Shown piece by piece: positions 22,266 to 26,292 of a stretch of DNA of 64,000 nt. A program made the position numbers and the translations under genes. Origin of the DNA: an uncultured delta proteobacterium (lineage in GTDB: Bacteria > Desulfobacterota > Binatia > Binatales > Binataceae); contig CAVXGH010000013.1 in assembly GCA_963761255.1 (NCBI GenBank), positions 37,184 to 101,183 on the forward strand, in the 5' to 3' direction. The notes beneath the pieces are model-generated. The model saw only the letters and a list, made by a program, of their open reading frames with translations. It was not told the origin of the DNA and did not search any database. The stretch's first letter is position 1. Every line of letters starts with the position of its first letter.

Positions 22266-22414
22266 GAAGGCGCTCCTGGTGGCCTAGCGGGAGACCCAAT
22301 TTTATCTGGCGAATGCGGCCAGCGTAATTGCCAGAATTCCGACGCCTCCGGCGGTTGTGCAAGTTTCGCGACAATGAGGTATCAGTTGGCGAGAATCTTC
22401 CTCGGAGCGATGCC

Positions 22415-23437
22415 ATGCGCAAAATAAAAGTTGGTTACCAGCTGGACTTCCGCAATCCTCCCAACTCGGGACGAAGTTTTCAGGAAGTCTATGCCGAAAT
22501 GCTCGCCCAGGCTGAGGTGGCCGACGCGGCAGGCTTCGATTCAATCTGGCTCACCGAGCATCACTTTACCGATGATGGCTATCTTCCCGCGATGATGCCC
22601 GCCGCCGCGGCGATTGCCGCGCGCACCAAACGCGTCGAGATCGGTACCTTCGTGCTGCTCGCGCCGTTTCAGCATCCACTGAAACTCGCCGAGGATGTCG
22701 CGGTCGTCGATGTGATCTCCGGCGGGCGCATCCGGCTCGGTATCGGGCAAGGCTATCGTCAGGGGGAGTTCGACGGATTCGGCGTGCCGCGTGAGCAGCG
22801 CCTCGGACGCACGCTCGAAACGCTGGAAATCCTGAAGCTCGCGTGGAAGGGCGAGCGCTTCGATTTCCACGGCAAATATTTCCATTTTCATGATGTGCGC
22901 GTGCTGCCCGCGCCGGTCAGCCAGCCCTTTCCCGAACTGCTATGGGGTGTCGGCGCGCCCAAAGCCATCCAGCGCGCGGCGCGTCTCGATATGTCGTTCG
23001 CGTGCGTGGGCGGGCGCAAGGAGATCGGCATCTATACCGACGCGCTCAAGGCCGCAGGCAAGGATCCCGCGCGCTACAGCATCGTTAACAGCCGCGCTTT
23101 GTACATCGCCGATTCGGAAGAGCAGGCGTGGGCCGACACGCGCGACGCCTTGATGTATCAGGCGGAGCTGTACGGCAAATGGCTCAAGACCGCGCAGTCG
23201 CAGGATGGTGGAAGGGGCGAAGTGCTGATTCGCCCCGATGCCGAACGGCTGCGCCGCACCACGGTGCTGGGCTCGCCCGCCCAAGTCAGAAAGCGGCTCC
23301 AGGAGATCGTCGAATCGGCGCCCATCACCGAGTTGGTAATCGCGATGCAGCTTCCCGGCCTCGATCCGAAAAAGGCGCGCCGCTCGCTGGAGCGCTTCAG
23401 CGCCGAGGTCCTGCCGGCGCTCCACGGTGCAGCGTAA
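22415..23437 (+). CDS. LLM-class flavin-dependent oxidoreductase
   Basis: GFDSIWLTEHHF and HPLKLAEDVAVVDVISGGR; start at ATG 22415. Confidence 0.9.
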   Translation: MRKIKVGYQLDFRNPPNSGRSFQEVYAEMLAQAEVADAAGFDSIWLTEHHFTDDGYLPAMMPAAAAIAARTKRVEIGTFVLLAPFQHPLKLAEDVAVVDVISGGRIRLGIGQGYRQGEFDGFGVPREQRLGRTLETLEILKLAWKGERFDFHGKYFHFHDVRVLPAPVSQPFPELLWGVGAPKAIQRAARLDMSFACVGGRKEIGIYTDALKAAGKDPARYSIVNSRALYIADSEEQAWADTRDALMYQAELYGKWLKTAQSQDGGRGEVLIRPDAERLRRTTVLGSPAQVRKRLQEIVESAPITELVIAMQLPGLDPKKARRSLERFSAEVLPALHGAA

Positions 23438-23501
23438 GCCAGATCCTTTGCGATGGGGTTCGACAAGTGACAATTACCACTATACAATCGACCAAACGGA
23501 T

Positions 23502-23781
23502 GTGATTCGACAGTTTAGACACCGAGGCCTGCGACGACTTTATAAGGACGATGATCGAAGGGGTTTGCGCTCGGAGCAAATCGATAAAATCGCCCGCGTT
23601 GCTGGCGTTTCTAAATCGGGCGCGACGTCCTCAGCATATGAGCCTGCCCGGGTTCAAGCTGCATCCGCTCAAGGGGAACCTCGCTGGATATTGGAGCGTG
23701 ACCATCAGCGCTAACTGGCGGATTATTTTTCGTTTTGAAGAAGGCGACGCGACCGACATCGATCTTATTGACTACCACTGA
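23502..23781 (+). pseudogene. higB: HigB (RelE/ParE-family) toxin with +1 frameshift near 23600
   Basis: MIRQFRHRGLRRLYKDDDRRGL...KIARV in one frame continues as LAFLNRA...LHPLKGNLAGYWSVTISANWRIIFRF...DYH in another. Span is 280 nt (3n+1). Confidence 0.85.
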
Positions 23782-23798
23782 GGGAAACTCCGAGAACG

Positions 23799-24110
23799 AT
23801 GAAAATGAAGAATCCCCCGCATCCGGGCCTTGCCGTCAGGCGTGATTGCCTGGAGCCGCTTGGCTTGAGCGTCACCGCCGCAGCCAGAGCACTGGGCGTT
23901 ACTCGTCAGGCGCTCAACAACCTTGTTAACGGAAAAAGCGGGGTTTCACCCGAAATGGCGGTGCGACTCGCCCAGGCTTTCGGCAGTAGCGCGGAGACCT
24001 GGCTCGGAATCCAACTTGACTACGACCTCGCACAGGTTCGGCGTCGAGAGCGCGGGCTCGCGGTACGCAAGGTGACCAGGATGCCCAGTCGGAAGCGGGC
24101 AACTGCCTGA
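23799..24110 (+). CDS. higA: HigA antitoxin (HTH)
   Basis: NPPHPG, LSVTAAARALGVTRQALNNLVNG and WLGIQ..YD. Confidence 0.93.
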   Translation: MKMKNPPHPGLAVRRDCLEPLGLSVTAAARALGVTRQALNNLVNGKSGVSPEMAVRLAQAFGSSAETWLGIQLDYDLAQVRRRERGLAVRKVTRMPSRKRATA

Positions 24111-24149
24111 ACACTTTCCCTTTTAGCGCGCCTGGAGTACACGAAACAT

Positions 24150-24995
24150 ATGGCAGTCGCATACATTCCGCGGACACGCGAGCTCTATAGCGATTTCAAA
24201 CCCTATCAATGGGTCGTGAACGAGACCGTGCCCTGGACGCCGCTGAGCAAGCCCATCGCGCAGTCGAAAATCGCGCTGATGAGTTCCGGCGGCATCATGT
24301 ATCGCGACCAGACGCGTTTTCATCGCGAGGATGCGTCTTATCGGCGGATTCCGAAAAATGCGGCGCGCGAAGATCTCTTCATCTGGCATTTCGGTTACCC
24401 AACCGCCGATGCCGAGAAGGATCCCAATTGCGTGTTTCCGCTTGAGCGGATGCGCGAACTCGAGGCCGACCGCGTCATCGGTGAGCTCTCGGATCCGGCC
24501 TTCAGCTTCATGGGCGGGATCTATTCGGCGCGCAAAGTCCGCGATGAACTCGCGCCGAAAATCGTCGAGGAGCTCAGGCGGGCTCACGTCGATACGTTCT
24601 ACCTGGTGCCTGCCTGACCCGTTTGCCATCAGTCCGTTGGACTGATTGCGCGAGTGGTCGAGGAGGCGGGAATCCCTACGCTCTGTATGACCTCGGCGCT
24701 GGACATCACGCAATCGGTGAAGGCGCCGCGCGCGGTGTTCGTGAATTTTCCCCTCGGCCATCAGACCGGACGCCCTAACGATCCGGCCATCCAGCGCAAA
24801 ATTGTTCGCGATGCGATGCGCGCCTTCGAAAGCATCAGCAAGCCCGGCGAAATCGTTCAACTTCCGTACGTATGGGATCCGAATGACCGCGGCTGGGAGA
24901 CGCGCGACTATACCAAAGGATGGATGCCGGAGCGCCCGAACCGCGAAGCGGCAGACCTGGCCGAAGCCCTGCGCGTGGCGAAATACACGACCTAA
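24150..24995 (+). CDS. selenoprotein of the D-proline reductase PrdB / glycine reductase GrdB family (Sec at TGA 24615-24617)
   Basis: ORFs 24150..24617 and 24654..24995 share a frame. Read-through gives YLVPA-U-PVCHQSVGLIARVVEEAGIPT (UxxC, then the EEAGIPT and FPLGH motifs). N-terminal half has PrdB-like KIALMSSGG and DPNCVFPL. Confidence 0.85.
24618..24650 (+). promoter_or_regulatory. candidate bacterial SECIS element
   Basis: Perfect 8-bp stem ATCAGTCC-GTT-GGACTGAT (24628-24646); the G-starting loop lies 18 nt after the UGA. Confidence 0.72.
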
Positions 24996-25095
24996 GGCAT
25001 CGCGCGGTCGGTTGTTTACCCAGCGACCTCCAAGCCGCTAAAGTCAGCTCTTCGAGAGCGCGTTTTCATTTCAACTTCACACAGGAGATTTATCC

Positions 25096-25620
25096 ATGGC
25101 GGAAGAACGTAAAGGCGCCGTTACGATGCGCGGTAACCCGTTGACGCTGGTTGGAGCGGAAGTCAAAGCCGGCCAAAAAGCACCCGAGTTTCATTCGGTG
25201 GACAAAGCGATGCAGCCCATCGGGCTCGACAAGTTCAAGGGCAAAGTAAAGGTCATCAGCGTGATCCCTTCGATCGATACGCCGGTGTGCGATGCGCAGA
25301 CGCGGCGCTTCAACGAGGAGGCCGCGAAGCTTGGTGACGTACAGATTCTAACGGTCTCGATGGATCTACCGTTCGCGCAGGCCCGCTGGTGCGGCGCGGC
25401 GGGGGTCAACAAGATCACGATGGTCAGTGACTTCAAGGACCCCCATGACTTCGGGAACAAGTACGGCGTGCTCATTAAGGAGCTTGGCCTGCTCGCGCGT
25501 GCGGTGTTCGTCGTCGACAAGAACGACAACGTCACCCATGCGGAGTACGTGAAGGAAGTCGCGAGTCATCCTGACTATGAGGCGACCCTGGCGGCGGCGA
25601 AAAAAGCGGCCGCAGCCTGA
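25096..25620 (+). CDS. tpx: thiol peroxidase (atypical 2-Cys peroxiredoxin)
   Basis: PSIDTPVCDAQTRRFN, SMDLPFAQARWCG and LLARAVFVVD motifs. Confidence 0.95.
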   Translation: MAEERKGAVTMRGNPLTLVGAEVKAGQKAPEFHSVDKAMQPIGLDKFKGKVKVISVIPSIDTPVCDAQTRRFNEEAAKLGDVQILTVSMDLPFAQARWCGAAGVNKITMVSDFKDPHDFGNKYGVLIKELGLLARAVFVVDKNDNVTHAEYVKEVASHPDYEATLAAAKKAAAA

Positions 25621-25633
25621 ACAGAGCTATGGC

Positions 25634-25665
25634 AAGGGGTCGGCGTCGCGCCGGCCCCTTTTTTT
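25634..25665 (+). terminator. rho-independent terminator
   Basis: AAGGGGTCGGCG-TCG-CGCCGGCCCCTT followed by a T-run. Confidence 0.8.
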
Positions 25666-25686
25666 CATCTCGCGCTACCAGGTCTG

Positions 25687-26292
25687 CTAATTCGCTTGTA
25701 GGATCATCTCTTCCACATCACGCAGGCGATCCTTACCAAAGAAGATCTCGTTGCCAACATAAAAGGTTGGTGAGCCGAAGGTTCCGCGCTCCACAGAACG
25801 ATTGGTATTCTCCAACAACCGATTCTTTACCTCGTCGGTTTGAATCAAGGTGAAGAATCGTTCGGGGTCGAAGCCCGCCTCGATGAGCGCCGCCCGATAG
25901 ACCTCGGGATCATCCATCTTCTTCGGCTCGGCCCACATGTGTCGATACATCTCGTCAACGTAATGCTCGAACACACCTAGCGGCCCCGCGGCTATAGCAC
26001 CTCGCATCATCATCAGCGTATTGACGGGAAAGAAGGGATTGCTCTTGAAGCGCGTGATCCCGTGGCGTTTTATGAAACGGTTCATCTCGATCCGCTCATA
26101 CTCAGGTTTGTTTTTGATTCCGGCCAGACTCTGTGCGGGCGAGCGGTTGTTGGTCAGCTTGAAGACGCCACCCAGCAGAACCGGCACGTACTCGAACTCG
26201 ACGCCGGTCCGTTTCTCAATCTCGGGGATCACAAGATGACTTAGGTATGCGTTGGGGCTGCCGAAGTCGAAATGGAATTCCACCTTAACCAT
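25687..26292 (-). CDS. 2-hydroxychromene-2-carboxylate isomerase / kappa-GST (DsbA-like)
   Basis: FHFDFGSPNAYL, GTFGSPTF and FFGKDRL. Confidence 0.9.
   Translation of the reverse strand: MVKVEFHFDFGSPNAYLSHLVIPEIEKRTGVEFEYVPVLLGGVFKLTNNRSPAQSLAGIKNKPEYERIEMNRFIKRHGITRFKSNPFFPVNTLMMMRGAIAAGPLGVFEHYVDEMYRHMWAEPKKMDDPEVYRAALIEAGFDPERFFTLIQTDEVKNRLLENTNRSVERGTFGSPTFYVGNEIFFGKDRLRDVEEMILQAN

Follow-up and report, generated by a model that had tools for sequence, protein, structure and literature searches.

The gene analyzed here belongs to a 64,000-nucleotide stretch of DNA (the window) from the genome of an uncultured delta proteobacterium of the family Binataceae (contig CAVXGH010000013.1 of the assembly GCA_963761255.1, positions 37,184 to 101,183 of the forward strand) and encodes a predicted selenoprotein of the PrdB/GrdB family (Table 1). 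Translation with genetic code table 11 breaks the gene into two open reading frames (ORFs), one of 155 amino acids (24150-24617) and one of 113 amino acids that starts with GTG (24654-24995). As the initial annotation of this locus proposed, the two ORFs form a single frame of 281 codons, in which the sole internal stop is TGA. When this triplet is translated as selenocysteine (Sec, U), the respective residue is U156, in the context DTFYLVPA-U-PVC-HQSVGLIARVVEEAGIPT, with the core motif VPA-U-PVC-HQSVGL. The second redox-type residue of this motif, Cys159, is the likely resolving cysteine. On the opposite strand, a 245-amino acid ORF (24123-24860) overlaps the selenoprotein gene; the same shadow ORF is observed in relatives, and it is not a gene.

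Table 1. Features of the selenoprotein locus (positions in the window)
Feature	Position	Strand	Remarks
PrdB/GrdB-family selenoprotein coding sequence	24150..24995	+	281 amino acids, TAA stop; one frame if TGA is read as U
UGA predicted to be decoded as selenocysteine, U156	24615..24617	+	TGA at this column in 110/110 loci; Cys homologs; Sec machinery
Cys159 codon of the U-P-V-C motif	24624..24626	+	UxxC in 108/110 loci
SECIS hairpin	24628..24646	+	8-bp stem, 24628-24635 with 24639-24646; loop GUU, 24636-24638
LLM-class (luciferase-like) oxidoreductase, ancestral upstream neighbor	22328..23437	+	PF00296, 209.6 bits
higB/higA-like toxin-antitoxin pair, not part of the system	23551..24110	+	PF05015, PF01381
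tpx, thiol peroxidase	25096..25620	+	NF001808, 219 bits (cut-off 123)
Terminator-like hairpin after tpx	25634..25660	+	12 pairs followed by a T run

The host genome (5.89 Mb in 15 contigs, 95% complete) encodes the dedicated machinery for Sec incorporation. A search for selA, selB, selC and selD, recommended in the initial annotation, detects selA (573 bits), selB (370 bits), the adjoining selD (384 bits) and a tRNA-Sec (66.8 bits; anticodon tca according to ARAGORN), with all matches above the respective cut-offs. Furthermore, selA is found in 40 of the 41 related genomes that were compared. The selenoprotein itself is present in 34 of these 41 genomes, and the 63 matches identified in them include 56 with one in-frame TGA, two with two such triplets and five with none, the latter being four short fragments and a single full-length form with Cys. 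A scan with one genome per species, for which the search patterns were located in parts of the protein other than the Sec site, adds 80 loci from Binataceae, other Binatia, Dehalococcoidia, Rokubacteria, Entotheonella, and metagenome-assembled genomes labelled Myxococcales and Pseudomonadales. The Sec column is occupied by TGA in each of the 110 loci that were parsed, from Binataceae to several other lineages. The usual motif in these sequences is VP[AV]-U-PVC-HQ[ST]VGL, and the two loci that lack UxxC are paralogs with U-P-L-D.

Several features of the alignment indicate how this TGA is read. In many relatives, the terminator of the selenoprotein gene is also TGA, so that the same triplet serves as an ordinary stop at the end of the gene, and the internal one would be recoded only locally. 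Comparison of the window gene with 55 orthologs identifies 645, 572 and 2219 differences in the first, second and third positions, respectively, of the 90 codons that precede the TGA, and 618, 472 and 2194 differences in the 90 codons that follow it. Downstream of the TGA, the codon differences include 1642 synonymous and 862 non-synonymous ones. The matching patterns on the two sides imply that both halves of the gene are subject to equal purifying selection in the same frame. The initiating GTG of the downstream ORF under table 11 corresponds to alignment columns 48-50, which are variable in relatives (GTG, GCG, GAG and others). Taken together, the comparative evidence supports the conclusion that this is a genuine selenoprotein gene, with the UGA predicted to be read as Sec.

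The initial annotation also pointed to a perfect 8-bp hairpin with a G-starting loop downstream of the UGA as a candidate Sec insertion sequence (SECIS) element. The hairpin, AUCAGUCC-GUU-GGACUGAU, starts 10 nucleotides after the UGA, and the G of its loop indeed lies 18 nucleotides after it. This geometry resembles that of the minimal SECIS element of the Escherichia coli fdhF gene, with an upper stem-loop about 11 nucleotides from the UGA and G and U in the loop. Folding of the single sequence is moderately unusual (86 nucleotides, -34.8 kcal/mol, z score -2.25), with 6 of 200 shuffled sequences folding as well or better, and it is the comparison of relatives, not the single fold, that places the hairpin beyond chance. 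In the alignment of 102 distinct 75-nucleotide sequences, the 8 pairs of the stem comprise 816 cells, of which 99.3% form a standard pair. Changes on both sides of the stem are seen in four of the eight pairs (28 cells), and in none of 500 shuffles are the pairing, the covariation score or the counts of double changes as high as in the real alignment. When, as a control, the 3' arm is slid by 1 to 3 columns, only 4-41% of the cells pair. Free variation is seen at the third codon positions of the loop and of the sequence outside the stem (the share of the commonest base is 0.38-0.64), whereas those in the stem are either near-fixed (0.99-1.0) or change only jointly with the partner. In the compensated pairs, a Ser to Thr or Ile to Val replacement in one arm is matched by a synonymous change in the opposite arm (Gly, GGA to GGT, or His, CAT to CAC, respectively). 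The covariation that the initial annotation suggested looking for is thus present.

The only full-length Cys form among the close paralogs (L139; G008:C3:413064-413807) has TGT at the Sec column, a mismatch in the stem and the loop GCG, i.e., the GUN loop is lost. The decay of the stem in this gene is consistent with relaxed constraint after the change from Sec to Cys. A hairpin is also found in the selD gene of the host (G000:C1:98443-99369, minus strand; L001), which itself contains one in-frame TGA, followed by GGUCC-GGA-GGACC, and is thus a second selenoprotein gene of this genome. The G in the triloop of the selD hairpin is located at +20 relative to the first base of the UGA, compared with +21 in the PrdB-like gene.

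In public databases, this protein is represented mostly by its N-terminal part. A search of a collection of 5.8 billion proteins yields, among the 120 best matches, 119 that span just 55% of the query and are 155-200 amino acids long, and the three short matches for which the sequence was inspected all end with LVPA. The sole full-length match among these 120 (P0002, 291 amino acids, 55% identical) contains the motif VPV-C-PVC-HQSVGL, with Cys in place of Sec. Thus, the statement of the initial annotation that standard gene callers would miss the gene is correct insofar as the catalogues store the form cut at the TGA, but the gene is not of a hidden or new kind, given that PrdB-type UxxC families have appeared in print since 2005, as described in the passages cited below.

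A profile search against 1.84 billion cluster representatives retrieves 3886 proteins at E ≤ 0.001. Among the best 150 of these, which were classified, 102 span the Sec column, 32 end just before it, 8 start after it, and 8 cover neither side. The residue in the Sec column of the 102 spanning representatives is Cys in 75 cases (with CxxC in 63), Ser in 10, Gly in 7, Trp in 4, Asp and Thr in 2 each, and Asn and Glu in 1 each. The four proteins with Trp (P0153, P0169, P0224 and P0149; e.g., LVPVWPVCHQSVGLIA) probably come from gene prediction with a code in which TGA stands for Trp. The homologs of the close family, accordingly, show the Sec/Cys alternation at this column that the initial annotation had asked for. 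That annotation listed a lack of Sec machinery, or TAA, TAG or a non-Cys residue at this position, as observations contrary to its reading; none of these is made in the close family, and distant members do show non-Cys residues. At the RNA level, contigs from one wetland run (X1), in which carry-over of DNA is possible, match each half of the gene, as well as tpx, with 85-95% similarity, and none of them spans the TGA with 31 nucleotides on both sides.

Profile comparisons assign the protein to the PrdB/GrdB family. Residues 23-152 match positions 210-344 of the 347-position Pfam profile GRDB (PF07355) with 44.8 bits, against a gathering cut-off of 22; this profile stops just before Sec, which is followed by the U156-P-V-C159 motif in agreement with the initial assignment of a PrdB/GrdB-like UxxC protein. 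The closest equivalog model is PrdB (TIGR04483), with 176 bits and an E-value of 8e-52, below the equivalog cut-off of 300; the match extends over residues 28-242 and profile positions 19-234 of 238. The models for GrdB, GrdF and GrdH (TIGR01917, NF040794 and NF040795) score 60-66 bits, against cut-offs of 602-800 (e.g., 63.1 bits against 602.2 for TIGR01917), and match only with their C-terminal halves. The subfamily model TIGR01918 yields 62.9 bits against 65.45 (profile positions 215-421 of 431). Taken together, TIGR01917 and TIGR01918 are matched only over positions of about 208-422.

The similarity to PrdB of Clostridium sticklandii and C. difficile thus covers nearly the whole length of PrdB and includes the Sec residue of the UxxC motif, and the two proteins are of similar size. 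The window protein differs from PrdB in that its C-terminus extends about 40 residues further, its score, 176 bits, is well short of 300, no PF09338 proprotein is found in the genome, the gene is not surrounded by a prd operon, and the host genome contains numerous LLM-class oxidoreductases (about 65 loci). With GrdB, GrdF and GrdH, the protein shares the C-terminal domain and the Sec position (model positions about 208-425); it lacks the roughly 200 residues of the N-terminal half, so that, with 281 residues, it does not reach the two-domain length of GrdB (about 430 residues), and GrdA and GrdE are not found. Another comparison is with thioredoxin-fold selenoproteins that contain UxxC or CxxC (Trx-like, Prx-like and DsbA-like), in which the motif is likewise located at the N-terminus of a helix and a selenenylsulfide cycle is presumed; their fold is different, however, and this is a case of analogy rather than homology.

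The initial annotation noted that no Stickland partners are encoded nearby, and this observation extends to the entire genome. There is no match to PF09338 (GrdE/PrdA) in the host genome, which is 95% complete, or in 9 genomes of the same genus. No match to PF04723 (GrdA) is detected in the host genome either, which is a weaker negative because no control genome matched this profile. In size, then, this member of the GRDB family resembles PrdB, but the defining partner of Stickland reductases is not found: with no PrdA/GrdE or GrdA gene identified in the genome, the protein does not appear to be a Stickland reductase. In PrdB, the Sec residue attacks the alpha-carbon of proline that is bound to the pyruvoyl group of PrdA. 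This mechanism needs the pyruvoyl group and so cannot run without PrdA.

An AlphaFold2 model of the protein, built from an alignment of 89 sequences, has a mean pLDDT of 95.5 and a pTM of 0.93, and suggests a Rossmann-like alpha/beta fold in which U156 is located between a strand (residues 149-153) and a helix (residues 157-172). The comparative evidence on decoding and, for the chemistry, the UxxC motif and its place in this model suggest the following scheme. The UGA at 24615-24617 would be read as Sec during translation, with the hairpin that starts 10 nucleotides downstream recruiting SelB with Sec-tRNA(Sec), and the ribosome would proceed through the C-terminal 125 residues to yield the full protein of 281 amino acids. 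The selenolate of U156, predicted to lie at the N-terminus of the helix, might then attack an oxidized or electrophilic substrate; C159, one helical turn away in the model, could resolve the adduct to a selenenylsulfide, which a general thiol system, such as thioredoxin, would re-reduce. Most probably, then, the product of the gene is a selenoprotein of 281 residues from the PrdB/GrdB family (PF07355) that is independent of a pyruvoyl partner of the PrdA/GrdE type; that it functions as a thiol/selenol oxidoreductase is plausible.

Several observations weigh against this interpretation or parts of it. A scan of positions 23500-26000 against Rfam, with E-values up to 10, identifies no SECIS family and yields two weak matches to small RNAs after tpx. 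Sequence search of the PDB gives a best E-value of 0.11, i.e., no solved relative, and Foldseek finds no PDB match at E ≤ 0.001. A wide structural search with VIA-align retrieves LacI/periplasmic-binding-protein and SDR-type Rossmann folds, with a best Z score of 8.3; Z scores up to this value are in the common range and unspecific, and these neighbors were rejected as a functional lead. The redox cycle outlined above is derived from the motif and its place in the secondary structure of the predicted model. Among the full-length representatives in the profile search, 27 of the 102 have a residue other than Cys at the Sec column, so that not every member is a Sec/Cys redox protein. Finally, the U-P-L-D paralogs lack the second Cys, which implies that this residue is dispensable in a part of the wider family and that a selenenylsulfide is not universal there.

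One of the U-P-L-D proteins is a second PrdB-like paralog encoded in the host genome itself (G000:C7:204980-205723, minus strand; L022 and L142), which is 45% identical to the window protein. This paralog would contain Sec without a resolving Cys, and its gene also includes a covarying hairpin, ACCAGACC/GGUCUGGU. Genomes of Binatia encode more PF07355-like paralogs with an in-frame TGA (L143-L153 among them), with up to 5 matches per genome, and display further motifs, namely UPFCNQ, UGVCNQ, UPDCCRN and UPLCTR. In 3 of the 41 related genomes, the most distant of these paralogs adjoin PF09338 (GrdE/PrdA-like) genes.

In the genomic context of the selenoprotein gene, the next gene, as stated in the initial annotation, is tpx. 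It has the same orientation and starts 100 nucleotides after the selenoprotein gene; the sequence between the two contains no more than a weak 5-bp terminator-like site (25047-25059), and, judging from this arrangement, co-transcription of tpx with the selenoprotein gene is probable. Beyond the terminator-like hairpin that follows tpx, a DsbA-like gene is encoded on the opposite strand. On the other side, the selenoprotein gene follows the LLM-class oxidoreductase, from which it is separated by the toxin-antitoxin pair. In the closest relatives (L023 and L054), this pair is absent and the LLM and selenoprotein genes are about 43 nucleotides apart, which indicates that the pair is a local insertion. 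The HigB-like ORF (76 amino acids) covers only positions 32-91 of the 91-position profile and may be short at the N-terminus.

Conservation of the neighborhood was examined in 35 Binataceae-type loci (69-94% identical) and 45 loci from other lineages. In 23 of the 35 Binataceae-type loci, the selenoprotein gene is followed by a tpx gene in the same orientation, which starts from about 80 nucleotides to 3.5 kb further on; the intervening stretch often contains a MAPEG gene, and GST or nitroreductase genes are found in the vicinity. The other 12 Binataceae-type loci contain no tpx, although two of these have less than 100 nucleotides of downstream sequence. Outside Binataceae, none of the 45 loci includes tpx within 6 kb, although both the protein and the SECIS element are conserved there; the immediate neighbors in these lineages are, e.g., MFS, family III CoA-transferase, metallo-beta-lactamase and methyltransferase genes. 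De novo clustering of the neighbors at 80 loci identifies no neighbor that is common to different phyla.

These observations bear on the idea, also put forward in the initial annotation, that the selenoprotein is a peroxiredoxin partner, for which adjacency is the only argument. In its explicit form, this idea would make the selenoprotein a dedicated reductant of Tpx that hands electrons to the oxidized enzyme in place of thioredoxin. The close spacing of the two genes in the window, with the strong terminator-like hairpin located after tpx rather than before it, the recurrence of tpx in about two-thirds of the Binataceae-type loci, and the thiol and detoxification character of the neighbors (MAPEG, GST and DsbA-like) are all compatible with such a role. 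It appears unlikely, nevertheless, given the variable distance and the genes inserted between the two in Binataceae, the loci without tpx in this family, and the lack of the association in all other lineages; a conservation that is limited to one family may simply be inherited gene order. With tpx confined to Binataceae-type loci, there is no evidence of a dedicated partnership, and the adjacency is best read as gene order that was inherited in one family and has a thiol/detoxification-flavored setting. As a whole, the redox and detoxification neighborhood in Binataceae (LLM, MAPEG, Tpx, GST and DsbA-like) would fit a role of the selenoprotein in antioxidant defense or detoxification.

The LLM oxidoreductase was considered as a functional partner as well and rejected. 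An LLM gene precedes the selenoprotein gene in many Binataceae loci, and LLM and GST genes also lie beside the U-P-L-D paralog of the host; however, with about 65 LLM loci in the genome, these associations are attributable to chance or synteny. The two LLM proteins, one from the window and one next to the paralog, are just 24% identical, and the LLM or GST gene of the paralog is retained in none of 8 orthologous loci. In another lineage of Binatia (e.g., the L105:3529-5118 region), the selenoprotein gene follows a conserved set of genes encoding NuoF-like, NuoG/molybdopterin-like (529 amino acids) and Exo_endo_phos proteins, and glutamate-synthase genes are located downstream; this is lineage-specific synteny.

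Could the protein still belong, as the selenoprotein subunit, to a hidden reductase of the D-proline, glycine or a related type, the carbonyl/pyruvoyl subunit of which is too divergent to be recognized? The PrdB model is matched almost from end to end with a highly significant E-value, and the UxxC motif is common to PrdB and GrdB according to the parts of reviews that treat these proteins. We nevertheless regard such a reductase as very unlikely. The PrdB score remains far under the equivalog cut-off, neither PF09338 nor PF04723 is matched in the genome, and no neighbor is conserved across phyla. Moreover, PF09338 matches are found in only 3 of the 41 related genomes, none of them of the same genus, and 5 of the 6 matches in these three relatives adjoin, or are within about 0.9 kb of, a true GrdB-like paralog with a longer frame that is only 25-30% identical to the window protein; the search is, therefore, able to detect the family where it exists. 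Finally, the chance is negligible that translation simply terminates at the TGA or that this triplet is a disabling mutation, leaving a 155-amino acid product only, two genes or a pseudogene, or that a standard amino acid is inserted there on read-through: the two ORFs under table 11, the 155-amino acid form in public catalogues and the Trp in 4 of 102 representatives agree with this possibility, but the persistence of TGA across several phyla, the equal purifying selection on its two sides, the variable columns at the site of the downstream GTG, the covarying SECIS element, the complete Sec machinery and the termination of this gene in relatives by an ordinary TGA all contradict it.

Selenoproteins of this type have been encountered repeatedly in metagenomes. 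In the survey of the Sargasso Sea (2005; PMC1088965), "Proline reductase (PrdB)" with the UXXC motif, represented by 42 genes and one Cys homolog, ranks third in abundance among the selenoprotein families. In the GOS survey (2008; PMC2398784), the entry "Proline reductase PrdB, pfam07355, UxxC" comprises 235 selenoproteins, which come from 38 samples, along with 110 Cys homologs. Both papers file the family under D-proline reductase, and their passages on it do not discuss the missing PrdA. A study of 2006 (PMC1794560) reports, in the part that covers this family, "proline reductase" selenoproteins from Anaeromyxobacter and Geobacter, with the family labelled as a homolog of thiol-based oxidoreductases; in the relevant sections of reviews of 2022 and 2026, it is still placed under D-proline reductase, TIGR04483. 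Judging from the criteria stated in these passages, namely pfam07355 and Sec in UxxC, both of which apply to the window protein, the latter belongs to the same family as the survey proteins; the survey entries come from oxic marine communities, whereas this member is encoded in a soil-type Binataceae genome. A full-text search of one literature collection retrieved no function assigned to stand-alone PrdB homologs and no account of Binatia selenoproteins.

PrdB-like UxxC selenoproteins outside a Stickland context are, therefore, already published, to the extent that the cited passages describe them, and the kind is not new. With the family and the Sec/Cys pattern already in print there, the discovery is modest. 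The initial annotation stands with respect to Sec decoding in a gene of the PrdB/GrdB family, the functional-looking SECIS element and the failure to find Stickland partners, but not with respect to novelty of kind and the Tpx partnership. A more far-reaching proposal is that stand-alone PrdB-like proteins are a distinct class of PrdA-independent selenol oxidoreductases misfiled as "D-proline reductase". This class would be expanded in Binatia, with up to 5 TGA-bearing matches per genome and the motifs UPVC, UPLD, UPFC, UGVC and UPDCC, and in Binataceae would be wired into an LLM-MAPEG-Tpx-GST cluster for antioxidant defense and detoxification, reducing Tpx or, directly, an electrophile or peroxide. 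This proposal appears unlikely.

The label "D-proline reductase PrdB" is misleading for such proteins, because the pyruvoyl partner is not found in the genome. A well-supported SECIS model is now available for the PrdB-like family. The gene is predicted to encode a conserved selenoprotein of Binataceae and many other uncultured soil and marine lineages that is stored publicly as a stump of 155 amino acids, and this clean, well-delimited member would be a reasonable starting point for expression and assay of an abundant family.

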